DNA of 64,000 bases from an uncultured Acidobacteriota bacterium (GCA_963796275.1 CAWCKY010000001.1:1024001-1088000), one strand, 5' to 3'; shown: positions 5,422 through 19,677, numbered from the stretch's first letter. Notes: a model not told the origin generated them from the letters alone. Translations and numbers: made by a program.

Positions 5422-5786
5422 ATTGCCTACCTTTCTTTAATTCATGGTTGCAGGGTCTCGACTAGGTCGACCTTCTTTCTATTTGAAGCCCCATGAAGAT
5501 GAGCATGAGGAATATGTGGTGTTGCTGATGCTGTTGATCTAAAGGCAGATTGGCTCTGATAAGCAGATAGACCGGTAAGGCATGATCTATCTCAAAGCGT
5601 ATTTGCCGGAATTAGCCAGGGAAATGATCATAAAGCTGTATCAGGCGTGACGCAAGAAAAATTTAAGAATACTCGGGAAAATTTTGATTAAATGGAAATG
5701 CGAGGAGAGGGTCGGCAATCTATCGAGAGAATGGTTCGGGTTTTTCAGAATTATCTGCCGTGAAACAGAGAATTTATAATTTGACG

Positions 5787-5862
5787 TTTGTGATTTTAGA
5801 TTTGTTATTTGTAGGAAAAAGAATGCTCCATCAACGACAAATGACAAATCTAAAATCACAAA
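5787..5862. repeat. 26-bp inverted repeat built from heptamer units (ACAAATG-like)
   Basis: 5787-5812 versus 5837-5862, 1 mismatch, 24-nt spacer. Confidence 0.85.
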
Positions 5863-6052
5863 TGTTAATAAATGCCCTCCTGTTCCTGGCTGTTGCGCAC
5901 GAATAAGAGGCTGATAAAACTAAGATTTGATGCAAGACACGATGGTCATCCAGAATCTATCAGCCTACTCCATGTCCAATGTAATTATGGTAGCAGGCAA
6001 ATTCGGTTTGATTGTCACTGAAGAAGGCAGAGCCTGCTATTCCACTAGCGAT

Positions 6053-8964
6053 TCAGTTTATTTTTTCCATTAACGCAACCGGTAAATTTGAAAATACCTC
6101 GGATAACGGCAGGGAAATCTCTCCCTCCGATTTCTGCGCGCATACGCTTTTGCCGTTGAATCGATCTCGATAACATCCGGCAAGTTCCTTCGACAAGGCG
6201 ATCGCGGTATCTCCCCATACCTCGCTCGCAATCGGCAGACTGGAATTTTCCCCCAGTTTGGTGAAAAACCGGGAAGCGGCGACGATCACCACTTTACTGC
6301 CTGATATTCTCGCAAAAGCTATTGCGTGCCTTTCGCGGTCGCCGCTCACTTGAAGCGGTAGGTATGCGCCGAGATCGAATAGGTCGCGCTCTGTGCGGCG
6401 GAGGTTGAGAGCGCGCGCGATTATGAATAGCTTGATCCGGCCGTCTTCCAGATTTCTTAGCATATCCTCGATCAGTTCCGCTACGTCATTCGACTCCAAT
6501 GAATCGAGGAGAGACTGGCGGCGCGCGTAATCGACCGGGCGCCGGTTGTCCGGATCGACCATGCTGAAATCCCAGAGCTCCGTTCCCTGGTAGAAGTCGG
6601 GAATGCCGGGGGAGGTTATTTTCAGCAATGTCTGCGATAAGGAGTTGAACATCCCGGCCCGCGCGATCGCCGATTGGCTCTTCGTGAAATCATGGACGAA
6701 GGCCGACTCAGGAGTGAGTATCTCTCTAATGAAGTTGCGCACGAACCGCTCATACTCTTCGTTTTGATTGAGCCAGCTCGAGTGGATCTTCGCCTCCCTT
6801 ATCGCTTTGATCATGTATTCCTCGATTCGCACGACGAAAGATTGATCGGACTCTTCACCCTCAAACGGGGCAAACGGCCATACTCCGACGAGCGTCTGGT
6901 AGAGCAAATACTCCTCGCTAGCATCAGGAGCGAGCGACCCTTCGAATGGGGTTTTGCGTTCTGAATTGAGTTTTTGCCAGCGCCGCACGGCTCGGTACCA
7001 GTTCACCGGGTTTTCTGAGAGGACATTGATACGCGCCCGCGCATCCTCGCTCCGTTTAGTGTCGTGAGTCGATGTCGCAAGCAGCGTATGGGGCCAGCTT
7101 GCGAGTCGCTTTCGGTTATGTTCGTGGAATGTCTGGGTTGAGATGCCGAAAAGCGAGGGATCGCCGCCGACTTCGCAGAGGGAGGCGAGCGGATAGTAGC
7201 GGTAAAACGCCGTATCCTCGATTCCCTTGGCGGTGACGGGAGGGGTCAATTGCTGGAAACGCATAACGAAATCGTGCCGTTCTGCCCGCTGTTCTTCATT
7301 GATCCCCTGAGGCTCTTCGTGCAGAAGAACCGATGCGATGAATTCAAAAATCGATGAGCTTATCGCCGGGTTGCGTCGACGTGCGCTTCGCACGGCGCTC
7401 AGGATGTGGTGGCGGTCGTCATCCGCAACCTTTCCCTGCTTTGCGCGGATGTAGCTGCGATAGACGGGAAAAGAGGCAATCACCTCTCTGAGCGCATCCT
7501 CCAGGCTGTTGAGCGTGAAATCGCGTGAGTATCTGTGCTGTTCTGAAATCCGATCGAGTTTTCGCGCCAGCACGTGCAGCTCGCTCGACATCGCGGCGCG
7601 CAGGACCAGCTTTCTCCCTTCATACGACACATCGTCGAATCTATCCTGCCTTCCTGTTATCCGCTGCCAAATCTTAAGGAATGCGGTCTCATTCGATCGA
7701 TCGATGAAGACTCCATTCAGCAGATTCAGAAAATCGTAGCCGGTCGTTCCCTGCGTAGCCCAGTTTTCGCGCAGCTCTTCGTTGCGCCCCAGAATCTTTT
7801 CAACTATCACGAAGTGAGAGGGGATCTGATTGTTGATAATTGTCCATCAGTCGATTGCCCTCCACGCACCGCCCTCAGAGCGCCGCGCTGCAGCTCTTTG
7901 AGGTAAAGTTCGGGATCATAAAGCCCATCGATGTGGTCGACCCGCAATCCAGTAACCATGCCCTTTTTCACCATTCGCAGGATAAAATTATGAACGGCGG
8001 AGAAGACCTTTCGCTCCTCAACGCGGATCGCTGCCAGTTCGTTAATGTCGAAGAAGCGGCGAAAGTTTATCTCATCAGCAGCCACCCGCCAGTGCGATAA
8101 GCGGTAGGATTGCGCGCCGAGCAATTCCTCAAGCCGATTAAAACTGGCAGGGTCCCCCTTTACGCCATTGAACTCGCGGATGACCGTTGCGATCGCTCGC
8201 CGCATCTGGCTGTTTGAGGTGACGAGCGACGAAATTCGGCGTTTGACGATCTCCTTCTCGCGGCCGCGTTCCTTCACCTTCTCCGGATCGGTGTCGGTGC
8301 GGGGAGGCAGATGTTCAAGTGCCGTGATTATGCTTTCCAATTCGAGCCGGTGCGGGTGTGACTCTTTGAGGCTGGCGGAGATCATTTCGAGCGCCGGTTT
8401 GAGTATCAGTATCCAAGTGCGCGGTGCAATCGGCAGTTCAGTGTCATAGTATTTGGCAATGAAGGTGCCGCGCTGATATTGTATCTGAATCTCCTTGTTT
8501 TCGAGCACCCTCCCGTATTGGTCCCCTAACACCGGAAGCAGCACCTTATTGCTCATATCCTGCTTCGGCGGCTGCCAGTCGATGTCGAAAAAGCGTGAAT
8601 AGGTAGAACCGGGACCGTTCTCCAGTATGTCCATCCACCATACGTTGTTCGAGTCGGCAATGCACATGTGATTAGGAACAAGGTCCATCATCAATCCCAT
8701 CCCAAGTCCTTTGAGCTTTGCACTAAATTTAACAAGATTCTCATTCGTTCCGATTTCAGGATTGAGTTTCGTGTGGTCTGTCACATCATAACCATGCAGA
8801 CTGCCTGATCGGGCAGCCAATAGTGGAGAAGCATAACAGTCGCTAATCCCCAGCTTGTCTAGATAACCGCTGATCGATTCCGCATCTTTCAATGTGAAAT
8901 TACTATTAAACTGAAGCCTATACGTCGATGACGGTATCCGAATTGTTATGGAATTTTCAGGCAT
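6053..8964 (-). CDS. treY: Malto-oligosyltrehalose synthase, split by a frameshift near 7815-7830 (ORFs 7807-9006 and 6053-7810)
   Basis: [37 protein letters not shown] in ORF1; [47 protein letters not shown] in ORF2; probable start at 8964. Confidence 0.93.
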
Positions 8965-9022
8965 ATCTAAGCAATTTAAATTTCTTGTCGATCGTAACAA
9001 ATTCATTTATTCTTAATTGTTG

Positions 9023-9038
9023 TGCAATCCTCACGCCG
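9023..9038 (-). promoter_or_regulatory. sigma54 promoter for treY
   Basis: CGGCGT-GAGGA-TTGCA on the minus strand, exact GG-N10-GC spacing. Confidence 0.6.
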
Positions 9039-9227
9039 ATCGAACTGATCTACCTAATCTACGTCCTTCCCGTGTAATGTGAAAAAACACTTGTAGCCTG
9101 TTAGTACACGACCGGTTGTATCGAACCTATTCATGATTCAGATATTTTAAGTTCTAATTTGTTATGTGGATTGACAAAATAGGCATAAATAGGGGGGTTG
9201 ACTGCGAAATGAGGGTTGGGGGTGCTC

Positions 9228-9243
9228 TGGCCTCTAACTTGCT
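9228..9243 (+). promoter_or_regulatory. sigma54 promoter for candidate sRNA 1
   Basis: TGGCCT-CTAAC-TTGCT, GG-N10-GC. Confidence 0.7.
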
Positions 9244-9253
9244 TATTTAATAC

Positions 9254-9414
9254 GTGAGCGTTATAGGTTCTTGCAACGCACAACGGCATGAATACTGAAC
9301 ATGCAGGGAGCAGTATAAAGGAGCCAGGTGGGGAGCTGGCTCTTTTCGTGCCGAATTCAAAGCTGTCCTGAGTAGAGTTCTTGAAAGGCTACTTTGCTCT
9401 GGGCAGCTTTTTTT
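9254..9414 (+). ncRNA. Candidate sigma54-dependent sRNA 1
   Basis: Starts 12 nt after the -12 box; 5' hairpin, three-way junction (9284-9353), terminator stem 9359-9410 plus T7; G-U pairs favour the plus strand; no credible ORF. Confidence 0.65.
9359..9414 (+). terminator. Rho-independent terminator
   Basis: AAAGCTGTCCTGAGTAGAGT / ACTTTGCTCTGGGCAGCTTT followed by TTTT. Confidence 0.8.
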
Positions 9415-9594
9415 GTTCGCAATCCATATCCAGTGTAGCGCCAATCAAACACAATCCATACATATTACCAGTACGAATTAGTTCACATTTTTTCATCCAT
9501 TTGCTACGAAAGCGGTCGCTTTACATCCATTCACAAAGCTAAGTAATCTAGACAGAAGTGTTTAGAGTTGATACCCGGGGATCCGTATTTTTAC

Positions 9595-9610
9595 TGGTAT
9601 GGGCCTTGCA
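9595..9610 (+). promoter_or_regulatory. sigma54 promoter for the Clp-like ATPase
   Basis: TGGTAT-GGGCC-TTGCA, GG-N10-GC, about 30 nt before the start codon. Confidence 0.7.
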
Positions 9611-9638
9611 GATTCATTAGATATCTCCCGGAATAAGG

Positions 9639-10796
9639 ATGTCACATATGAAACAGCAATCAGAGATCATGAAGGCAGCAGCTGCTGCCGTGGGTTCAAT
9701 GCAGAATTGGATTCCACTCAACGCCGAAGAGAGGTGCGATGAGGCAGGGGTATTCGAAGAGGGGATATCTTCAAGGATCGTTGCACAGGATGAAGCTATC
9801 CGTGCTATGTCGCAGCTCTATCAACTTTATTTGGCTGATTTGAACATGCCGAACAAACCGATCGGGACGCTCCTCTTCCTGGGTCCTACCGGTTCCGGCA
9901 AAACACGTGTCGTCGAGGCGGCCTCAGAGGTGTTGTTCGACGATCCATATGCGATGGTCAAAATTGACTGTGCCGAGTTTCAACACTCGCACGAAATATC
10001 GAAACTGATCGGCTCGCCGCCCGGATATTTGGGGCATCGTGAAACACATCCGATGTTATCGCAGGAGAACATAGACCGTTTTCAGACGCCAACAAATAAG
10101 CTTACCTTAATTTTATTCGATGAGATAGAGAAGGCGTCCGATGCGCTATGGCAACTCTTGCTTGGCATTCTCGACAAAGCGACGCTCACCCTGGGCGACA
10201 ACAGAAGGGTCGATTTCTCGAACTGCATCATCGTCATGACGTCCAATCTGGGCGCCCGTGAGATGAGCGTTCTGACCGAAGGTCAAATGGGCTTTGCGCC
10301 AACCGAAGCAATTTCCTCGGACCTCGATGCGAGGCTGGTAAAAATCGGAATTGAGGCGGCGCGGCGTAAATTTTCGCCCGAATTCATGAATCGCCTCGAT
10401 AAGATAGTCGTTTTTCAAACCCTAACCCGCGCCGCGATGGAGCGGATTTTGGACCTTGAATTGGATCTTCTGCAACGGAGGATTCTATCGACCGGACGCA
10501 GCGCTTTTATCCTTAAATGTAGCGATGAGGCAAAGGAATTTTTGCTTAAGGAAGGCTTCGATCGCCGCTACGGGGCAAGACCGCTCAAGCGTGCCATTGA
10601 ACGACATATTCTCGTTCCCGTCTCGAATATGATCTCTACCGGACAGCTTTCAACCGGTGACATTATGCTTGTCGATGTCAACGATGTTCGGAAAGGGCTC
10701 TGTTTCGGGAAGGCTTTCCCGTCATTAAGCCTGGATCATTGCGATCAGAGCAGCGGATTTTTCCCCGCACCTCAATTGCAAAGATTGGCTACATAA
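9639..10796 (+). CDS. Stand-alone ClpA/B/C-type second AAA+ module (AAA_2 + D2-small)
   Basis: GPTGSGKT, LIGSPPGYLG, FDEIEKA, MTSNLG, PEFMNRLD, YGARPLKR; no N-domain or D1. Confidence 0.9.
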   Translation: MSHMKQQSEIMKAAAAAVGSMQNWIPLNAEERCDEAGVFEEGISSRIVAQDEAIRAMSQLYQLYLADLNMPNKPIGTLLFLGPTGSGKTRVVEAASEVLFDDPYAMVKIDCAEFQHSHEISKLIGSPPGYLGHRETHPMLSQENIDRFQTPTNKLTLILFDEIEKASDALWQLLLGILDKATLTLGDNRRVDFSNCIIVMTSNLGAREMSVLTEGQMGFAPTEAISSDLDARLVKIGIEAARRKFSPEFMNRLDKIVVFQTLTRAAMERILDLELDLLQRRILSTGRSAFILKCSDEAKEFLLKEGFDRRYGARPLKRAIERHILVPVSNMISTGQLSTGDIMLVDVNDVRKGLCFGKAFPSLSLDHCDQSSGFFPAPQLQRLAT

Positions 10797-10938
10797 CGTA
10801 CGGCAACTGTCGTGCGCACACGGCTCGGCTAAAAGGCCGGTTGATTAGGAAGATGTATAAAGCGAATTAACGTGACGGAGCATTCTTTCGCTTCGCATCC
10901 ACTCCTGCTTATCCGGCCTTGTCTTCCACGGACGATGG

Positions 10939-11088
10939 TTATAATCCCAGGGTCCGTCGCTTAGTTATCAGCTGAAGTGCCAAAACAACCACTGCAATTA
11001 CCAGCAGCAGATGGATGTTACTTCCCACTCCGCCCAAAAAACCAAGCAGCCAAAGAATTAAAATAATCGCAAGGATCGTCCATAACAT
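10939..11088 (-). CDS. lmo0937-family (DUF5670-like) small membrane protein, 49 aa, absent from the ORF track
   Basis: Translated by hand: MLWTILAIILILWLLGFLGGVGSNIHLLLVIAVVVLALQLITKRRTLGL; AAGAAGGA RBS. Confidence 0.88.
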   Translation of the reverse strand: MLWTILAIILILWLLGFLGGVGSNIHLLLVIAVVVLALQLITKRRTLGL

Positions 11089-11117
11089 AATATCCTTCTT
11101 TGCCTGCTTTAATAAAA

Positions 11118-11133
11118 GGCAACTGATATGCCT
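11118..11133 (-). promoter_or_regulatory. sigma54 promoter for the lmo0937-like gene
   Basis: AGGCAT-ATCAG-TTGCC on the minus strand, GG-N10-GC, 30 nt from the ATG. Confidence 0.6.
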
Positions 11134-11282
11134 GTCTCAAACTATCATTACTGTAGCAGCCCGATGCAGCGCGTATCGTAGAAATACAAGTGTCTGTAGT
11201 CAATACATTCAGTTGCATTATTATTATATAAGATTGCGTGGTAATATTGGGTGAAGGGCTGTACTAAAACCGAAACGCGCTA

Positions 11283-11298
11283 TGGTCTGAGCTTTGCA
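11283..11298 (+). promoter_or_regulatory. sigma54 promoter for the DUF883/holin/DUF3618 operon
   Basis: TGGTCT-GAGCT-TTGCA, GG-N10-GC. Confidence 0.6.
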
Positions 11299-11413
11299 AG
11301 AAAGGCTAGGGAGACTCATCGCTAAGATTGAAAAAGACCTGGGGGAGAGCGAGTTACACAAAAATGATTTGAGCTACCTCTGGGGATTAAAGGCATTGAG
11401 TTACTAGGAGGAG

Positions 11414-11806
11414 GTGAACATGGATAGGATGGATAGGACGGAATTCAAGTCTAACCGGGAGTACCAGGATAATTTGCATCAGGATGAAGAAGTGTTGAGG
11501 GAGCAGGGTTATATGGCTGGAGGGGGTATGACTTTTGATCGGGTGAAGGCGGCGGTGGCAGATTTTTTATATGAGGCAGCTGAAGTGATCCATCATAAAA
11601 GTTTAGGGACCGGCAGTTCCGAAATATCGAATTTCGGTGACCGTGCCGCTAACTGGTTGGAGCATTCAGCCGGCTATGTGAGGGAGATGGAGCCGCAGCA
11701 GTTAAAGGCGGATTTCGAAGATAAAGTCCGCCGCCATCCGGGGCGGAGCCTCATAATCGCCGGGGTGGTAGGGCTGGTTATAGGCAGCGTGATTCGCAGG
11801 AGGTAA
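11414..11806 (+). CDS. ElaB/YqjD (DUF883)-like C-tail-anchored protein
   Basis: C-terminal VRRHPGRSLIIAGVVGLVIG-RRR; strong AGGAGGAGG RBS. Confidence 0.75.
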   Translation: MNMDRMDRTEFKSNREYQDNLHQDEEVLREQGYMAGGGMTFDRVKAAVADFLYEAAEVIHHKSLGTGSSEISNFGDRAANWLEHSAGYVREMEPQQLKADFEDKVRRHPGRSLIIAGVVGLVIGSVIRRR

Positions 11807-11810
11807 TTAT

Positions 11811-12230
11811 ATGTTCGAGCGGCACGGACAGGAGAGGATTTTATATTCATCATTGCAGCGCGAATCGATTGGAGATCTGCTCAGCAACCTGGCGGCTCAA
11901 TCGACCACTCTCGTGCGCGACGAGATCGCGTTGGTCGGGCGCGAATATTATGAAAAGGGAAAGCATGTTCGGCCGGCGTTGATCGTGCTGGCCGTTGGCG
12001 CCTTTCTCGCTATGCTCGCATCGGTGACCCTCTGCGCGGCGATTGTCCTTTTCATAAGTCAATATATTGACATCTGGATTTCTGCTGCGATCACAGGAAT
12101 CAGTTTAGGGATTATCGCCCTGTTGATGATTTTGGTCGGCGTCAGCCGAATGAAGCAGACAAGCCTCAGGCCTGAGCAAACTTTAAAGTCGCTGGAGGAG
12201 AACAAAGAATGGCTGAAAGAAATTACCTAA
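11811..12230 (+). CDS. Phage-holin-like (Phage_holin_3_6 type) membrane protein
   Basis: SIGDLL...LVRDEIAL, two TM helices, PEQTLKSLEENKEWLK tail. Confidence 0.8.
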   Translation: MFERHGQERILYSSLQRESIGDLLSNLAAQSTTLVRDEIALVGREYYEKGKHVRPALIVLAVGAFLAMLASVTLCAAIVLFISQYIDIWISAAITGISLGIIALLMILVGVSRMKQTSLRPEQTLKSLEENKEWLKEIT

Positions 12231-12670
12231 CTGAGGGCCGCCCAGCTTCTGCTTCGGCTCATGCTCCGGAACGTAGTGCTGAAGAGATTCGGAAGGACAT
12301 CGCATCGACGCGCGAGTCGATCACCGAAACGGTGGATCAGTTGAGTGATCGTTTCGGGCAGACTTTAGATTGGCGCACGTACGTATCGGATCATCCGCTG
12401 GCTGCTTTGGGGGTGGCGGCAGGGATCGGATTTTTGGCAGCGGGATTATTCAGGCATCGCGCTTCGGCGAAAGATCGCTTTACGGATGCTTTGGCCGATG
12501 CAGTCGAAGATATGTCGGAACGATTTCGTAATCACCTCGATGGGCTGGGTTTGAAAAGACCCGGCCTGGCGATGACGATGAGAGCGGCGGCAGCCGGTGC
12601 GATTGCCAGAGCTGCAACCGCCTATTTGAGTAGCCGTGTCGTTGGTGGCGACAACTACAAGAACTCATAA
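12209..12670 (+). CDS. DUF3618-domain protein
   Basis: RSAEEIRKDIASTRESITETVDQL; HPLAALGVAAGIGFL; overlaps the upstream gene. Confidence 0.8.
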   Translation: MAERNYLTEGRPASASAHAPERSAEEIRKDIASTRESITETVDQLSDRFGQTLDWRTYVSDHPLAALGVAAGIGFLAAGLFRHRASAKDRFTDALADAVEDMSERFRNHLDGLGLKRPGLAMTMRAAAAGAIARAATAYLSSRVVGGDNYKNS

Positions 12671-12690
12671 AACGGAATGAAGGAGGAAGT

Positions 12691-13155
12691 ATGGCAGACA
12701 CACCAAGAAGCGAACAGAATCAAGCGAAACAGGCCACACCGGGAGGCCAGACTGCCGAACAGATAGCCAGCGCGGCGCGGCAGGCTCGCGGATATATGTC
12801 AGACACAGAGCGCCAAACGGGGCAAACAGGGCAAACGGGGCAGGCTGGGCAAGCGGGACAGGCCGCTCAGAAGGCGAAAGAGAGAGTATCCGATATGGCC
12901 GGCCAGGCACGGGAGACTATAAATCATGCCTATTCTCGCGCTAGTCGTGGGATGAACGAGACCTGGGACCAGGCGATGGTTTACAGCAAAGACCATCCGG
13001 CAACGGCTACCCTGGTGGCTTTCGGAGCGGGGCTCGGGATCGGCCTCTGCATCGCAGGGACTTTCGGCGGCCTACAGTCCCGCAGCCGCGCACGCCGTAT
13101 AGTACCTCCGATAATGAACGCGCTTTCGGATATTGCCCGGGAATTTTTCCGTTGA
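12691..13155 (+). CDS. DUF883/YtxH-like stress protein with GQT/GQA repeats
   Basis: GAGGAAG RBS; HPATATLVAFGAGLGIG anchor; nonamer-coded repeat near 12813-12866. Confidence 0.7.
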   Translation: MADTPRSEQNQAKQATPGGQTAEQIASAARQARGYMSDTERQTGQTGQTGQAGQAGQAAQKAKERVSDMAGQARETINHAYSRASRGMNETWDQAMVYSKDHPATATLVAFGAGLGIGLCIAGTFGGLQSRSRARRIVPPIMNALSDIAREFFR

Positions 13156-13190
13156 TAACGGTTCAGGAACGAATAAATGATACCGAAACC

Positions 13191-13258
13191 GTCCCAGTTG
13201 CCCCAGTCGCCCCCATTGTCCTTGTTGTCCCAGTCACCCCGGTCGCCTCGGTCGCCCC
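13191..13258. repeat. Degenerate nonamer tandem repeat (GYCCCAGTY-like), intergenic
   Basis: gtcccagtt gccccagtc gcccccatt gtccttgtt gtcccagtc accccggtc gcctcggtc. Confidence 0.75.
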
Positions 13259-13284
13259 TTTCCGAGGTTGAAGGAGAAGAATCG

Positions 13285-14934
13285 ATGCCCAAAGAGAAGC
13301 GGACCATTCTCCTCGTCAGTAAAAATAATACGGATCCTCAGCCCTGGCGGGAGTATCTGGAGACCGACGACGCAATCGACTGGTCATTCATCGAGGAAGA
13401 GTCGGCCGCGAAAGCTGCGACGAGCTGTCTGCTGATCAGACCCGATTGTCTTCTGGTCAGCGGAACCCCATCGGGGATCAATGATGTGCTGGCGGCTCTG
13501 CAGGAATCGATAGACCAGATTCCGGTGATCGTGATCACCGATTCGGGCGGGGATGAATCTTTGGGACCAATTGGAAGAGAAGTGGGAGAGTGTCTGAATC
13601 GTGAGGCTGTCTCGTCCGGCGTTCTCCGCCGGACTGTCAGCCGAGCGATAGAGATGACCAGGATGCAGTGTCTGGTTGAACAACAGGCGCGGCAGATCGA
13701 TGAACTCAATCTGCGGTTGGAGACCGAACGGGGCCAGATGATGGAGCGCGAAAGGCGGGCGCGCGATCTGGCCGAAGCGGTCAACCGGGATAAGGATGAA
13801 TTCATTGCGGTCGTCTCACACGAATTGCGAGCCCCCCTCAATGCCATACTCGGTTGGGCGCGCATTCTCAAAATCGGGAAATACAACGCAAAAACATTCG
13901 AGCATGCGGTCGATGTGATCGAACGCAGCGCCCGTACCCAGCAGCGATTGATCGAAGACCTGCTCGACACCGCGCGGGTCATCAGGGGGAAGCTCCGATT
14001 GGAGACCAAACCCGTCGATCTCGCCCGGGTCATCGAGGCTTCCGCCGATTCCGTTCACCCGGCCGTCGAGGCTAAGGGCATAGATTTAAAATTGAAACTG
14101 AAGGGTAAGAACAATGTCATTACGGGTGATGCGGACCGGCTGCAGCAGGTAGTCTGGAATCTGTTATCGAATGCCGTCAAATTCACGCCCGAGGGGGGGC
14201 AGGTAGAGGCTCAACTCGAACGGGCGGACCCTTATTTACAAATTATCGTGAGAGATTCGGGCAAAGGCATCAGCCGCGATTTTCTGCCCTATATCTTCGA
14301 TCGATTTCAGCAGGCCGATCTGGCCAGCAGGCGCCGCCACAGCGGGTTGGGGCTCGGCCTGGCGCTCGTACGGCATCTCGTCGAGCTGCACGGCGGAACA
14401 GTCGAGGCCGATAGCGCGGGTGAAGGGCAAGGATCTACCTTTATTGTGAGGCTCCCGCTTCCGGCTATTCGGCAGCGAGTCGATGAAAAGAAGCAAAGTG
14501 CCCGCGATAAATCGGTTGCCATCAGCTCCTACTCGCTCGACGGCATACGCACGCTGGTGGTGGATGATGATCCGGATGCGCGCGATCTCGTGGCCACCTT
14601 GCTGCGGCAATATGGCGCCCATGTCACTACAGCGGCTTCCGCCTCGGAGGCGCTCGTATGCATAACATCCAGCGATTCATCCAATCGAGCCGAGATTCTG
14701 GTCTCTGACATCGGGATGCCGGAAGAAGATGGATACTCCTTGATCGAGTCGATACGGCGACTCGCCCCCGAAGATGGAGGTTCCATTCCTGCCATCGCGC
14801 TCACCGCGTATGGGCGCGCGAGCGATCGCATCAGGGCGCTTTCAGCGGGTTTCCAAACGCATATGCCGAAACCCGTCGAACCCGCAGAGCTTGTCATGGT
14901 GATATACAGTTTGACGGGCCGCGCCAGTTATTGA
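13285..14934 (+). CDS. Hybrid sensor histidine kinase (degenerate REC - HisKA - HATPase - REC)
   Basis: SHELRAPL, NLLSNAVKF, DSGKG, GLGLGL, VSDIGMP; GAAGGAG RBS supports a start at 13285 rather than 13177. Confidence 0.93.
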   Translation: MPKEKRTILLVSKNNTDPQPWREYLETDDAIDWSFIEEESAAKAATSCLLIRPDCLLVSGTPSGINDVLAALQESIDQIPVIVITDSGGDESLGPIGREVGECLNREAVSSGVLRRTVSRAIEMTRMQCLVEQQARQIDELNLRLETERGQMMERERRARDLAEAVNRDKDEFIAVVSHELRAPLNAILGWARILKIGKYNAKTFEHAVDVIERSARTQQRLIEDLLDTARVIRGKLRLETKPVDLARVIEASADSVHPAVEAKGIDLKLKLKGKNNVITGDADRLQQVVWNLLSNAVKFTPEGGQVEAQLERADPYLQIIVRDSGKGISRDFLPYIFDRFQQADLASRRRHSGLGLGLALVRHLVELHGGTVEADSAGEGQGSTFIVRLPLPAIRQRVDEKKQSARDKSVAISSYSLDGIRTLVVDDDPDARDLVATLLRQYGAHVTTAASASEALVCITSSDSSNRAEILVSDIGMPEEDGYSLIESIRRLAPEDGGSIPAIALTAYGRASDRIRALSAGFQTHMPKPVEPAELVMVIYSLTGRASY

Positions 14935-15033
14935 TTGCTTTAGGCGTATTGAATGTTCAGAAACAAATTTCCGGAATCCGCAATCTATGCGCATCCGTCA
15001 ATAAACAGTCCGCAATCAAGAAAGAGGGAAGTC

Positions 15034-16635
15034 ATGAACAGAGCAAAGGTGCTTGTTATCGACGATGATCCTGAAATGCTCGATCTGACCCAGTATGAGC
15101 TGCAGACCCGTGGTTATGAGGTGATTACGGCGAAGAATGGCGAGGAAGGGTTGAAAATTATTGGCGAACACGGCGTCGACGTCGCGCTCACGGACCTCCA
15201 GCTTCCTGATATTCACGGAATTGAACTGGTCGGGATGTTGAAGGAGATTTCGCCGCGCACGGAAATAATCATGGTGACCGGCTACAGCTCGCTCAACGAT
15301 GCTATCGGCGCGATCAAGGCCGGCGCATTTTATTTCATCGAAAAGCCGGTCGAATTCGAGGAACTGTCTCTCCTGCTCGAGAAGGCTATCGAACGCGGCA
15401 GCCAGGCCGAGGAGATCAAGAACCTGCTGGGACGATTGAGCGAGCGAACCTCGTATTACAATCTGATCGGCAGCAGCAAGGCCATGCAGGATATCTATGA
15501 GATTATCGAAGGCGTCGCCGAATCGGACGCCAACATAATGATCTTCGGCGAATCGGGGACCGGCAAGGAGTTGATCGCAAATGCTATCCATTATAAGAGT
15601 CTGCGCGCCAAGAAACCGTTCGTTAAGATCAACTGCTCGGCGCTGCCGAAAGAGCTGATCGAGTCGGAGCTATTCGGTCATACCAAAGGCGCATTCACCG
15701 GCGCGGCGACCGAGAAGACCGGATTGATCGGGCAGGCGAAGGGGGGCAGCCTCTTGCTTGATGAGATCGGTGAGATGCCCGTTGAATTGCAGCCCAAGCT
15801 TCTGCGCGTACTGCAAGAGCGCGTCTACTATCGGTTAGGGAGTGAAAAAGCGCTCGAAGCCGACTTCCGGTTGATCTCGTCGACCAATCGCGATCCGCTG
15901 GTGGCGATCCGCGATGGGCATTTGCGTGAAGACCTTTACTACCGCATCAACACCATCGAAATTCACGTACCGCCTCTGCGCGACCGCGCGGAAGATATCC
16001 AGCATCTGGCCGAATATTTCCTGAAAATATATGCTGAAAAGTACCATCGCCAGGTGCACTCGATATCACAGCACGTCTATGAACGAATGTTCGAGTATTC
16101 TTGGCCCGGCAACGTGCGCGAGCTGCAGAATGTCATCGAGCGTGCGGTCCTACTCAGCAAGGGAGATATGATCGAAGAGAGCATCCTGCCCACGGCTATC
16201 TCGGTACAGCCGGAGGCAGCCAGTGTCCCGGTGCCGGAATCATCACTGCCTGCGACCGGCAGCAAATCTGAAGCAGGGGTGTCAAATGCACAGGATTTGA
16301 CGCTGGAGCAGATGGCCTGGTTGATAGTTAACCGAATCCCGGATTCGAAGGACGGGAGGCATCGAACCGACACGATCAAACAGTTTGAAGGCGCCATCGT
16401 CAACGCCGCTCTCGAGCGCACGAGAGGCAACAAGCAGGCGGCTGCCAACCTGCTCGGCCTCTACCGCCCCCGCCTTTACACGCTGCTGAGAAAACACAAC
16501 CTGGGCAAGACGATCCGTGAAGTCGACCGGTCTATCACAGATGCCGAGCTGGAAGAACAAGAAATGGCTGAGATGGATTCTCACGCTATGGTAGATAATG
16601 GGCTTACTCACACGATGCGTTCGGCGGGAGACTGA
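15034..16635 (+). CDS. NtrC-family sigma54-dependent response regulator (REC-AAA-HTH)
   Basis: TDLQLP, GESGTGKE, ESELFGH, GAFTGA, WPGNVRELQN, Fis-type HTH GNKQAAANLLG; acidic C-terminal extension. Confidence 0.96.
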   Translation: MNRAKVLVIDDDPEMLDLTQYELQTRGYEVITAKNGEEGLKIIGEHGVDVALTDLQLPDIHGIELVGMLKEISPRTEIIMVTGYSSLNDAIGAIKAGAFYFIEKPVEFEELSLLLEKAIERGSQAEEIKNLLGRLSERTSYYNLIGSSKAMQDIYEIIEGVAESDANIMIFGESGTGKELIANAIHYKSLRAKKPFVKINCSALPKELIESELFGHTKGAFTGAATEKTGLIGQAKGGSLLLDEIGEMPVELQPKLLRVLQERVYYRLGSEKALEADFRLISSTNRDPLVAIRDGHLREDLYYRINTIEIHVPPLRDRAEDIQHLAEYFLKIYAEKYHRQVHSISQHVYERMFEYSWPGNVRELQNVIERAVLLSKGDMIEESILPTAISVQPEAASVPVPESSLPATGSKSEAGVSNAQDLTLEQMAWLIVNRIPDSKDGRHRTDTIKQFEGAIVNAALERTRGNKQAAANLLGLYRPRLYTLLRKHNLGKTIREVDRSITDAELEEQEMAEMDSHAMVDNGLTHTMRSAGD

Positions 16636-16667
16636 ACTAACTTGAAGAGGGAAGGGAATATGAGTGT

Positions 16668-16889
16668 ATGAACAAGGAAAGAAAAGATGACCCGAAGCCT
16701 AAACCTCCACCCGCCCCCCAACTGCCCAACCTCCCATGGAGCCCTGACGATCCTTTCCAACTGGATCCGGAGCGAAAAGAGCCAGTTACTACAAGTCTGC
16801 CAGAAACAGAAAAAGAAAATGATGGGGCAACGCCGCCGGCGCGACCAAAACGCGAGAGACGAGAAAATGAAGAAAGTAATGAGCAATAA
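16668..16889 (+). CDS. Small Pro/Glu-rich hypothetical protein
   Basis: Follows the regulator on the same strand with purine-rich upstream sequence; low complexity. Confidence 0.45.
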   Translation: MNKERKDDPKPKPPPAPQLPNLPWSPDDPFQLDPERKEPVTTSLPETEKENDGATPPARPKRERRENEESNEQ

Positions 16890-17052
16890 CTATAATAGAA
16901 CACACACAGGTATTTTTTTAGTACATAGACATGACTTTCTTCAATCCATTTTAGTTATTATGTACACATAAAATTCCTATTTCTCGCATCGAAATATCTC
17001 CAAGCATACAGAATATAACAAGTTGAGTATTTTAGAAAAATCGCAATGTTAA

Positions 17053-17068
17053 TGGCATTGAGGTTGCT
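17053..17068 (+). promoter_or_regulatory. sigma54 promoter for candidate sRNA 2
   Basis: TGGCAT-TGAGG-TTGCT, near-consensus, with AT-rich upstream DNA. Confidence 0.8.
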
Positions 17069-17078
17069 AGGCAGTTGA

Positions 17079-17219
17079 TGACCATTTTAACGAATGGTCA
17101 GCTCAAGTACAGGCGAGGGACTTTCGGGGGAGTGAGTTCCTCGCCGTCATGAGTTGGGATGGCTGCTTGCGAATAGCTGTCACACGAGGGAAAGCTATTC
17201 TCAAGCAGCCATTTCTTTT
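17079..17219 (+). ncRNA. Candidate sigma54-dependent sRNA 2 (three stem-loops)
   Basis: TGACCATT/AATGGTCA at the predicted +1; long stem 17100-17155; terminator stem 17160-17211 plus TTTCTTTT; G-U pairs on the plus strand. Confidence 0.7.
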
Positions 17220-17357
17220 GACATCGATACCGAACAGCGCCGGAGGTTAGTCAAACTTATGCTTGGCAGCCATAAGTTACCTTCTGGCGCTCGTCCTAGC
17301 TATTCTGGCGATACCAAGGCGTATTTCCTCTACCTTGTCGTGGTATCGATGTATGAA

Positions 17358-17876
17358 TTATCGAACTGTCGTATACTCGCGCGTATAGACCGGCCGGAGG
17401 TCTCTCTCCTCAACAACCACCTCAGTCAGCGATAGTGACCGAACACCTATTTGGAGTCCCTCATTGAGTTGTTGAATCAAGATGACCCGTCCATTATTGA
17501 ACCGGAGCGCGTCTCGGTAGACGTACGGCTTATCAGTTATCTGAGTGAAGGTAGCTTCCTCTCTTTCGTTTAGGCCGTGCTCTTTCTGAAGACGCGCCGG
17601 GATGCCCTGAACATCCAGCCGTGCACCCGGCGGAATACAGACCGCGGGCAGCGCTCTCTCGATCTGTCCGTTGGCTGATTCCATCCCACGATCCATCCAC
17701 GTTTTGAATCTCATCCATAAACTGGATTCCGCTGTGACCTGATATTGTTTCTTTATCTTATCGAGGTCAGTCGGCGATGCCAGCCCTTTCGAACCAGAGA
17801 GGAATCTGTGGACGAAAAGCGTTTCGCCTTCAACGGCCAGACGGTTTTTAAAGCTATGCAATGAATAGTCGCACAT
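17358..17876 (-). CDS. Conserved hypothetical protein of the MCDYSL...AVC(I/L)xPG type
   Basis: AGGAGG RBS; MCDYSLH, AVCIPPGARL and YRDALRFNNG motifs. Confidence 0.8.
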   Translation of the reverse strand: MCDYSLHSFKNRLAVEGETLFVHRFLSGSKGLASPTDLDKIKKQYQVTAESSLWMRFKTWMDRGMESANGQIERALPAVCIPPGARLDVQGIPARLQKEHGLNEREEATFTQITDKPYVYRDALRFNNGRVILIQQLNEGLQIGVRSLSLTEVVVEERDLRPVYTREYTTVR

Positions 17877-18241
17877 ATTCTACCTCCTAAATATCCTGGG
17901 CGATGCCCTGCTTGAATGACGATTACTGAATCTACTCTCTTTACTGCTTCTTCGTTGAGTATTAAGTCTTCAACAGTTTATCCGGTCGTCTTCTATTATT
18001 CCGGGTTCATACCAGGCGATTCGAATGGGAGGATTTCAACATAGCCTTACCCGGTAATCATTTCGTTTTGGAGGATTCTTTTTCTTAGCTGAAACCGCTT
18101 GCTGTAAGTTTACCTCATTTCTATGGGTTTGAGAACCGAATAGAGGCATACAGCTAATTTTCGTGGAATATCATTGATATGAGATTGCTTTTCTATAGTT
18201 TAAAGAGGGACCGAGCATCACAATGTCGCGCACCTTCGCAA

Positions 18242-18333
18242 CGCGGCGGCCCGAGACGACTGCTTTCTCCTGAATTTCTGTGAAAGTTGTATAACAGAAA
18301 TTCAGGAGAAAGCGGTCGTCTCGGGCCGCCGCG
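18242..18333. repeat. 40-bp near-perfect palindrome with a 12-nt loop
   Basis: 18242-18281 versus 18294-18333, 39/40 complementary. Confidence 0.92.
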
Positions 18334-18412
18334 CTCGAGCGTCTCACTATTCATCTATTCATTTCATAAGGGTAATAAGAAGCAATTTGATTTTTCCTCT
18401 GCTCCCCACCAC

Positions 18413-19603
18413 TCACCGTCTCGTAGCACTGTTGCGAGGCGAGCTGGATCGAACAGTTATTTCCGTTCCGCTCGGGAGATCGAGGTTATCGCGGCCTTGG
18501 ATCAGAACAGTCCCGGCGCCTGCGCCGGCCCCAACCGCGGCTCCGATGGCAGCGCCCGATCCGCCACTGGCTACTGCGCCGATTATCGCGCCGAGGGCCG
18601 CTCCGATGCCTGATCGTGTGATCGTGCGGGTCGATTGACTGTCGTCATCCTTAATAGTGCCTTCACTCTCTATCTTGACCTCTTTCCCGTCAGGCGTGCG
18701 GATGTTTTCGAGTGTGCCTCTGAAATCGTATGTGCTGCCGTCGCGCATCCGAATGCGGTCGAAATTGAGCGTCAGCTCTGCGCTCCCGGTTACACGTCCC
18801 GAACTCTCGATGTTGGAAACGATTCCTTCAATCACGGCACCTCTGTATTGGGAAGGCGATCGCACCTCCATGCTGAAACGATTCGTGGAACTGTCTTCCT
18901 TCGTGGACAGGTTTGTGGTCAGAACGGCTGTAAGCCTGGTGTTATTGGGCACGATAAATCGCCCTTGAACCGGTCGATTGGGGCCGTTGTTATCACGCGG
19001 ACCCGTATAGAGATTCAATTGCGCGATGTCGGACGTCTTTTCATATAGGCTCGTGACGACTATCGGCTGGGAGAAGCGTTCCGCATAAATGCTGCGCGTG
19101 ATCCGCATCCGCTGGCCTCTCTCGGTCGGGTCGAATGTAACGTTGTAATCGCTGCCCTGTGAGCCGGTCCTGTTGACGATCAACTGGTCGCCATTGAGTG
19201 ATGCTTTGATGCGCACCGTCCGCCCACGTTCCGTTGTCTCCGTACGAGTCCGCCCGTCCGCGTCGAAGGTGGTTTTCGGCGCACGTGTGGAGGCCATCGT
19301 GAAGCGGCGTCCGCTCTGCTCAATTGCGATCACATCCGGAGCATCAAGTCTTCGCGTAACGCGCTCGCGCGCCCGTTGTTGCTCGCCCGACGGCAATCCG
19401 CGGATTGCCCGCTCAACTATATCGTCCGCGTTGTCGCTGCGTGAAACATCAAGCCGCCATGTCCCCGTCAATTGGCCGGGATTCCGTTGAGAACGCCGTT
19501 GATTTGCTTGCTGTGCGCTCACGGAAGTATCAGCCTGCACAAGCAGCATTAACAGAAGCGCAAGCATCATGAAATAGTTGATGAATTTTATTTTTACTGA
19601 CAT
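18413..19603 (-). CDS. Secreted protein with TrbI/VirB10-like C-terminal domain and glycine zipper
   Basis: Signal peptide; VPNNTRLTAVLTTNLST...GAVIEG...LNFDRI; GAALGAIIGAVASGGSGAAIGAAVG. Confidence 0.75.
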   Translation of the reverse strand: MSVKIKFINYFMMLALLLMLLVQADTSVSAQQANQRRSQRNPGQLTGTWRLDVSRSDNADDIVERAIRGLPSGEQQRARERVTRRLDAPDVIAIEQSGRRFTMASTRAPKTTFDADGRTRTETTERGRTVRIKASLNGDQLIVNRTGSQGSDYNVTFDPTERGQRMRITRSIYAERFSQPIVVTSLYEKTSDIAQLNLYTGPRDNNGPNRPVQGRFIVPNNTRLTAVLTTNLSTKEDSSTNRFSMEVRSPSQYRGAVIEGIVSNIESSGRVTGSAELTLNFDRIRMRDGSTYDFRGTLENIRTPDGKEVKIESEGTIKDDDSQSTRTITRSGIGAALGAIIGAVASGGSGAAIGAAVGAGAGAGTVLIQGRDNLDLPSGTEITVRSSSPRNSATRR

Positions 19604-19661: not shown

Positions 19662-19677
19662 AGCAAGAATAGTGCCA
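19662..19677 (-). promoter_or_regulatory. sigma54 promoter for 18413-19603
   Basis: TGGCAC-TATTC-TTGCT, a perfect consensus. Confidence 0.85.

Follow-up and report, generated by a model that had tools for sequence, protein, structure and literature searches.

We analyzed a window of 64,000 nucleotides from an uncultured Acidobacteriota bacterium (GCA_963796275.1, CAWCKY010000001.1:1024001-1088000; genome G000) to which an earlier, sequence-only reading had assigned two small RNA (sRNA) candidates. The two RNAs, sRNA1 and sRNA2, flank a DUF883/holin-X/DUF3618 operon together with a histidine kinase/NtrC-type activator pair (Table 1). Folds, homologues, covariation, and promoters all indicate that both are genuine sRNA genes of the sigma-54 type and share a loop motif, which bears out the preliminary description on this point. 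We assign them, based on these predictions, to a previously undescribed sRNA family within the known class controlled by sigma-54 and two-component systems, with an unusual G-rich loop signature. Domain matches also agree with the earlier account of the operon, which comprises four small membrane/stress genes (11420..13155, + strand) and is syntenic in the two other genomes of the genus (G002 and G001).

Table 1. Features of the sRNA locus, in coordinates of the 64,000-nucleotide window
Feature	Position	Strand	Basis or remark
Sigma-54-type promoter of sRNA1, TGGCC-N6-TTGCT	9228..9243	+	Pattern match; TGGC-N7-TTGC kept in G002 and G001
sRNA1, ~160 nt	9253..9413	+	5' hairpin, loops AGGGAG and GGGGAG (9330-9335), long terminator hairpin and U-run
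sRNA1 motifs AGGGAG; TGGGGAG	9305-9310; 9329-9335	+	Sequence
Sigma-54-like promoter before ClpB-D2-like AAA+ gene	9595..9610	+	Pattern match; TGGCAT..TTGC also in G002
Short AAA_2/ClpB_D2-small ATPase (ClpB-D2-like AAA+)	9639-10796	+	Pfam domains
DUF5670 gene	10939-11088	-	Domain match
Sigma-54-like promoter of stress operon	11283..11298	+	Pattern match; kept in G002 and G001
Operon leader, ~110 nt, with TGGGGGAG and TGGGGA	11309..11419	+	Motifs judged coincidental
Leader motifs TGGGGGAG; TGGGGA	11340-11347; 11381-11386	+	Sequence
Operon ribosome-binding site (RBS) AGGAGGAGG; start ATG	11406-11414; 11420	+	Sequence
ElaB-like 129-aa protein	11420-11806	+	No Pfam match; C-terminal transmembrane segment like the DUF883 membrane anchor
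Holin-X family protein	11811-12230	+	Pfam (PF07332)
DUF3618 + DUF883_C protein	12209-12670	+	Pfam
Weak DUF883 protein	12691-13155	+	Pfam
Hybrid histidine kinase (HisKA, HATPase_c, receiver)	13177..14934	+	Pfam domains
NtrC-type sigma-54 enhancer-binding response regulator (receiver, Sigma54_activat, HTH_8)	14953..16635	+	Pfam
Sigma-54-type promoter of sRNA2, TGGCAT-N5-GTTGCT	17053..17068	+	Pattern match
sRNA2, ~144 nt	17077..17220	+	5' hairpin, central hairpin loop CGGGGGAG, terminator hairpin loop GAGGGAA (17186-17192) and U-run
sRNA2 motifs CGGGGGAG; AGGGAA	17125-17132; 17187-17192	+	Sequence
Gene convergent to sRNA2	17358-17876	-	
Gly-zipper protein gene	18413-19603	-	
Sigma-54-like promoter before Gly-zipper gene	19662..19677	-	Pattern match

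Both RNAs are predicted to fold far better than shuffled sequences, sRNA1 (9252-9416) at -64.8 kcal/mol (z -4.75) and sRNA2 (17077-17220) at -76.0 kcal/mol (z -9.45). The preliminary description had reported six G-rich motifs, two in each sRNA and two in the operon leader. All six lie exactly where it had placed them, and the four in the sRNAs occupy apical loops of the minimum free energy folds, the hairpin loops it had proposed. Within G000 alone this recurrence is not compelling and stands barely above chance. GGGGAG has a background of 0.17 per kb per strand in this genome, GGGGA of 0.74, and the relaxed form GGG(G)A[AG], as originally defined, of 2.34, and two relaxed motifs within 105-160 nt have a chance probability of a few percent. 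The sRNA part of the proposal was decided by comparison with homologues. A 24-codon open reading frame (ORF) that starts at 17079 inside sRNA2 was rejected as a gene, as the homologues have no ATG there.

A family of sRNAs with conserved G-rich loops

BLAST searches recovered sRNA1 in each of the two congeneric genomes, and sRNA2 in one of these and in a second genus. In alignments of G000 with these relatives, the promoter boxes and loop motifs show no change, and substitutions in the stems are compensatory; the stem that carries the GGGGAG loop of sRNA1, for example, changes from GCCAGG/CTGGC to GCCTGG/CAGGC. We built covariance models on sRNA2 (R1) and on sRNA1 (R2) and searched 87 genomes, from 17 genera, of the window's taxonomic family (Acidobacteriota, Blastocatellia). 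R1 matched 38 of the 87 genomes and 10 of the 17 genera, often with two to four copies per genome, and R2 matched 7 of the 87. In a class-wide sample, R1 matched 13 of 38 genomes of the same taxonomic family and 0 of 112 in nine others. By these counts, the sRNAs appear restricted to one soil-dwelling family of Blastocatellia. One genome, G004, is flagged as unpublished. It contributes one R1-positive and one R2-positive genome, is the sole genome of genus g3, and its locus L174 is among the 38 promoters and 32 folded members considered below; without it the counts are 37/86 (R1), 6/86 (R2), 35/37 promoters, and 31 folded members, and no conclusion changes.

Covariation supports the shared fold. 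Among 35 R1 matches, in an alignment that was itself fitted to the model, 91.5% of cells pair, compared with 29-47% with slid partners, and 36 of 58 stem pairs have changed on both sides. The terminator stem, GGCUGC...GCAGCC followed by AUUUCUUUU, is conserved among family members. R1 scores sRNA1 at 23.7 bits (E ~1e-5), and three loci in relatives are matched by both models; because R1 and R2 overlap in this way, sRNA1 and sRNA2 are predicted to be distant paralogues of one family.

While blastn found no paralogues within G000, a scan for a sigma-54 box followed by GGGGA, with subsequent application of the covariance model, gave three further, near-identical copies (promoter starts at C1:737462, C6:1783081, and C7:896137, all + strand), which R1 scores at 27-39.8 bits. 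Their promoters read TGGTACGGTC[A/C]TTGCA and their loops UUGGGGGAC and CUUGGGGGAGG. G000 is thus predicted to carry at least five family copies, two in the window and three elsewhere. About 170 nt of upstream sequence is also conserved among the three extra copies and may hold an activator site. Directly downstream of one of them lies a 66-nt repeat (C6, ~1783358-1783423; 91-97% identical) that recurs at least four times in G000 (C6:2821455, C2:50506, C2:56879, and C2:40805).

Across species genomes, at least 119 stretches matched a sequence pattern with 16 specified bases. Among the 80 pattern loci listed, 13 matched R1, 12 of these carrying Acidobacteria- or Blastocatellia-type titles; the remaining listed loci were set aside as chance matches, as expected for 16 specified bases. 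The titles of matching public loci name Acidobacteria, Blastocatellia, and Pyrinomonadaceae.

Rfam 15 gave no match at gathering score anywhere in the window, nor, within 8800-17700, any with E up to 10, and the search showed no homology to the described sigma-54 sRNA families (Qrr, GlmY, CrcZ, and Pxr). The sole match with E<0.01, a eukaryotic miRNA model on a terminator hairpin, was set aside. We consider the family new within the sigma-54 sRNA class because of this lack of Rfam matches, and a full-text search found no published work on Blastocatellia sRNAs or on sigma-54 sRNAs of Acidobacteria.

The most constant part of the family is in the loops. Of 30 full R1 matches, 26 have [U/C]GGGGGAG or UUGGGGAG as their central loop; of the other four, one has GGGAGAG, one has GGGGUG, and two are doubtful loci in genus g2 (see below). 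Genera g1, g5, and g6 do not differ from one another in the central loop. The terminator loop has GGGGAG in 14 and GGGGGA in 12 of the same 30, and the GAGGGAA of G000 is a single degenerate outlier. In genus g15 there is one more hairpin, the third, and its loop reads UGGGGGA. Each RNA thus shows two or three conserved GGA-containing loops, in which the flanks vary among members and the core is constant. Over the 32 folded members, the motif has a mean unpaired probability of 0.65, a value lowered by one GGGGA inside a stem in g15, compared with 0.29 for the remaining RNA. These patterns are best explained if the G-rich apical loop, GGGGA(G/U), displayed two or three times per RNA, the terminator loop included, is the functional element. 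The motif is therefore conserved and predicted to be single-stranded in the sRNA homologues, and this half of the original shared-motif claim stands.

The other half does not. The preliminary description had cast the operon leader as a fellow binding site, with its own copies of the motif. The leader fold is only marginally better than shuffles (z -1.96), its G-runs are predicted to be paired, each with the surroundings of the other (unpaired probability ~0 at 11342-11347 and 0-0.8 at 11382-11387), and the motifs are absent from both homologous leaders examined (2/2, G002 and G001), each of which keeps the sigma-54 promoter. Among 94 intergenic sigma-54-like promoter matches in G000, five are followed within 170 nt by two or more GGGGA: the three extra sRNA genes, the stress-operon leader, and one match that runs into a coding region. 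About 0.13 GGGGA is expected per 170 nt. Because one such mRNA leader among ~85 is the chance expectation, we treat the leader GGGGGAG and TGGGGA as coincidental and probably outside any circuit. Enrichment of the motif in leaders of other sigma-54 genes, which the circuit would lead one to expect, was likewise not found among the 94 matches.

Sigma-54-type promoters and a candidate activator

The pattern TGGY-N7-TTGCW, representing the -24/-12 boxes, matches six times in the window compared with 2.0 expected, and 4 of 100 shuffles reach six. Among R1 family members, TGG[CT]-N7-TTGC is found at a fixed distance upstream in 36 of 38. The two promoter-less exceptions, L042 and L044 of genus g2, also lack the central hairpin with its G-loop and may fall outside the family. 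G000 encodes rpoN, and the sRNAs thus show the boxes and the sigma factor gene that characterize the sigma-54-dependent regulatory sRNA class, as far as sequence can indicate.

The activator gene at 14953-16635 is the candidate input. In 12 genomes from three genera, an orthologue (70-81% identity) is encoded upstream of sRNA2 on the same contig and strand; these are 12 of the 14 g1, g5, and g6 genomes where both activator and sRNA were found. The distance between the two is 0.4-1.5 kb in G000, G002, and G001, 4.3-5.4 kb in five g5 genomes, 4.9 kb in G054, ~12.5 kb in G007 and G021, and 90 kb in G053 (0.4-12.6 kb in 11 of the 12). In g15, activator and sRNA are on different contigs. The conserved linkage supports, without proving, a role of this activator in driving sRNA2, and we consider it most likely that sRNA2 is switched on by the neighboring histidine kinase/NtrC-type activator pair.

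Candidate functions of the G-rich loops

Several known systems resemble the family in part. The Qrr1-5 sRNAs of Vibrio are LuxO/sigma-54-dependent, multi-copy, and base-pairing. The family shares with them sigma-54 and, in its candidate input, an NtrC-type activator, one copy beside the activator gene, several paralogues per genome, and multiple stem-loops plus a terminator; it differs in having no sequence or Rfam similarity and in its repeated 5-6 nt loop motif, where Qrr has a 30-nt single-stranded region. CsrB and RsmX/Y/Z also present repeated GGA hairpin loops in structured, terminator-ended sRNAs. The differences from these are the sigma-54 promoter, the lack of an Rfam match, the lack of CsrA in G000 and most carriers, the invariant core GGGGA in place of ANGGA, and the number of sites, two or three here; CsrB carries far more. 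CrcZ of Pseudomonas is described in two papers as CbrB/RpoN-dependent and as an antagonist of Hfq (PMC4063720, PMC5113210). The family resembles CrcZ/CrcY in the sigma-54 promoter, the position of an sRNA gene just downstream of a kinase/NtrC-type activator pair, the short motif repeated in unpaired regions, and the presence of more than one copy per genome. It differs in the absence of an Rfam match, in its phylum, in having two or three sites as opposed to about six, and in a motif that is G-rich (GGGGAG) where theirs is A-rich. Finally, LhrC, RsaE/RoxS, and 6C have redundant C-rich (UCCC/CCCC) loop motifs. LhrC of Listeria is reported to be multi-copy and under two-component control, and 6C to have C-rich loops (PMC4132741, PMC6486639). 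Like these, the family carries one short motif in more than one loop, that of the terminator among them, and it shares the multiple copies and probably the two-component control of LhrC; promoter type and phylum differ, and the G-runs here would pair with C-rich sites and not with Shine-Dalgarno (SD) sequences.

By analogy with the last group, we tentatively favor a reading in which the loops serve as redundant G-rich seeds for base pairing to C/U-rich sites in trans-encoded RNAs. Pairing with C-rich targets had been offered as a bracketed alternative in the preliminary description, and it is the version we prefer. The two-component system and sigma-54 would switch on sRNA transcription, and the G-rich loops would then pair with short C/U-rich sites (UCCCC, CUCCCC). 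One possible route is that an SD-like seed displaces a C-rich anti-SD element, so that the SD is freed and translation activated; this sub-model is attractive because GGGGAG resembles an SD sequence. Of csrA and hfq, the two genes named in the original proposal as worth seeking, G000 encodes hfq (C3:803873). Along with the Rho-independent terminator and its 3' U-run, as in Hfq-dependent sRNAs, this is consistent with base pairing, as are the lack of an evident partner protein and an architecture that mirrors LhrC, RsaE, and 6C.

A number of observations weigh against this reading. When 9129 crudely called 5' regions were scanned by duplex energy, no target stood out, and many of the top matches were spurious short ORFs. 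Exact complements of the 20-23 nt loop regions, searched in one strand orientation, included none of at least 12 nt at an RBS. No conserved C-rich site was found in the leaders of downstream DUF4383 or DUF1800 genes or in the local leaders, and a CUCCC in the leader of the ClpB-like gene (9625) is not conserved in G002. The invariant core is just 5-6 nt and would fit a protein-binding site equally well. To our knowledge, G-rich seeds have little precedent; known repeated-loop sRNAs are C-rich since they target SD sequences. On the input side, sequence and synteny are the grounds both for sigma-54 dependence and for naming this activator, and G000 encodes ~44 full-length enhancer-binding proteins. 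A crude shared-k-mer scan upstream of the five local and three distant promoters performed no better than shuffles and did not support control of all five local promoters by a single activator.

In polarity, the G-rich loops are the reverse of the C-rich anti-SD seeds that are common among sRNAs. Unusual targets (C-rich sites, with anti-antisense activation) and decoys for a partner other than CsrA are the two possible outcomes, and each would add a variant to sRNA mechanisms. Post-transcriptional control in Acidobacteria, a dominant and hard-to-grow soil phylum, is essentially uncharted, and the family offers a linked input (sigma-54 promoter and kinase/activator), a crisp candidate active site, and several copies, all of which are testable in cultured members.

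The main rival to base pairing is a protein decoy for an RNA-binding protein other than CsrA: GGGGA(G) loops would sequester Hfq or an unrecognised RNA-binding protein and relieve its mRNA targets when the two-component system fires. Models exist in GlmY, which decoys RapZ, and CrcZ, which sequesters Hfq, and the gene order here, kinase, sigma-54 activator, sRNA, matches cbrA-cbrB-crcZ. A short invariant motif displayed two or three times per RNA from five gene copies per genome, a constant core within variable flanks, the presence of hfq, and target scans that found no base-pairing partner would all suit a decoy. However, there is no candidate protein: no RNA-binding gene is conserved beside the sRNA genes, whose neighbors are DUF4383 or DUF1800, and ProQ is absent, with no proQ match in G000. 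GGGGAG is also unlike the A-R-N and A-rich motifs of Hfq, two or three sites per RNA is far below the CsrB-type sponges, and sigma-54 mRNA leaders show no enrichment of the motif. We regard the decoy as possible but less probable than base pairing.

A bolder and still less probable combination is that, in this CsrA-less, non-flagellated acidobacterium, at least five sRNAs under sigma-54/two-component control use SD-like GGGGAG decoy loops to capture either an unknown GGGGA-binding translational regulator or the 30S anti-SD. If true, this decoy battery would amount to a new RNA sponge that controls translation in stress, one that parallels Csr/Rsm but is independent of it.

It is improbable that the RNAs instead act in cis, as 5' leaders or attenuators of the gene that follows. 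The arrangement in g5 and g6 would allow it, as the RBS of a DUF4383 membrane-protein gene lies within ~25-60 nt of the terminator on the same strand. Elsewhere the context differs: sRNA2 of G000 faces a convergent gene, the gene after sRNA1 has its own sigma-54 promoter, the nearest downstream ORF on the same strand is 298 to 7676 nt away from the three extra copies, and in g15 and g7 a DUF1800 gene takes the place of DUF4383, at a distance of 200-390 nt. Every copy, moreover, ends in a strong terminator. At L015, L017, L024, and L025 (g6 and g5), the DUF4383 RBS is strong, and read-through of the sRNA terminator could co-express the gene.

An SD mimic, in which loops with GGAG or GGAGG bind the 16S anti-SD tail and act as a decoy for 30S subunits, or park them, in stress, fares slightly worse again. 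The 16S 3' end reads ...GGAUCACCUCCUUUCU, and loop:anti-SD duplexes reach -7 to -11.5 kcal/mol, though good SD sequences give far stronger ones (-17.7 to -18.1 kcal/mol). GGGGAG does occur at SD distance before 84 crudely called genes, a count biased by the start-picking rule, and among the products of the putative regulon are DUF883/ElaB-like proteins, which have ribosome-associated relatives in E. coli. But the invariant core is GGGGA and not GGAGG, many loops read GGGGGAU and so have no GGAG, and we know of no precedent for an SD-mimic decoy sRNA.

The least likely explanation is the circuit originally proposed, in which the sRNAs titrate CsrA/RsmA, or an equivalent, off identical GGA motifs in the stress-operon leader and so form a feed-forward loop. 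GGA is present in all loops, and in some relatives the loop sequence (GGGGGAUGU) is similar to the SELEX consensus of CsrA. In G000 (9.46 Mb, 7 contigs, 94.7% complete), however, we found no match to csrA (PF02599), fliW, or flagellin. CsrA is encoded by 21 of the 87 family genomes and is somewhat commoner in sRNA carriers (13 of 38 R1-positive genomes compared with 8 of 49 others), counts that are not phylogenetically independent. The other 25 of the 38 carriers have no csrA, including nine that are at least 95% complete, and in genus g5 the sRNA is present in 8/8 genomes and csrA in 0/8. Because most carriers have no CsrA and yet the loops are invariant, as in g5, the gene content indicates that the conserved loop function cannot be CsrA binding. 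Where csrA does occur, in G007, it sits within a flagellin-fliW-csrA-motA-motB cluster; FliW is the known protein antagonist of CsrA in the flagellar module. In three g15 genomes csrA is ~36 kb from an sRNA gene on the same contig (G073:C9, G074:C25, and G064:C87), which might be counted in favor of the circuit and is probably plain within-genus synteny. A secondary CsrA link in flagellated relatives is possible. With the leader motifs unconserved and predicted to be paired, and a sigma-54 promoter in place of the GacA/UvrY type, the circuit already appears largely refuted for G000.

Some minor features of the window and its relatives were recorded along the way. Two R1 matches in the window, at 18164-18335 and 5712-5869, are long hairpins and were rejected as family members. 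The first contains a perfect inverted repeat of ~35-40 bp (GGCGGCCCGAGACGAC...GTCGTCTCGGGCCGCC) at 18240-18335, between the convergent gene and the Gly-zipper gene; the repeat has the appearance of a very strong terminator acting in both directions, and this hairpin alone accounts for its weak score against the sRNA model. The second overlaps an AT-rich long hairpin (...GATTTTAGATTTGT...ACAAATCTAAAATC...) at 5785-5870, in an intergenic region of 32% GC upstream of the gene at 6053-7810 (- strand). The 3' untranslated region of the Gly-zipper gene (18401-18410, - strand) reads GGUGGGGAGC, the same 10-mer as the sRNA1 loop at 9327-9336, which may be chance. In G002 (L011, C332), an insertion of ~290 nt that consists of a long inverted repeat (...CTCCTTAGTGGGTGAGTTTCATGCATGCGCC ... 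GGCGCATGCATGAAACTCACCCACTAAGGAG...) lies between sRNA1 and the ClpB-like gene. It looks like a mobile element of the miniature inverted-repeat transposable element type and is absent from G000; a related end sequence is found at the same place, in the 3' flank of sRNA1, in G001 (L005).

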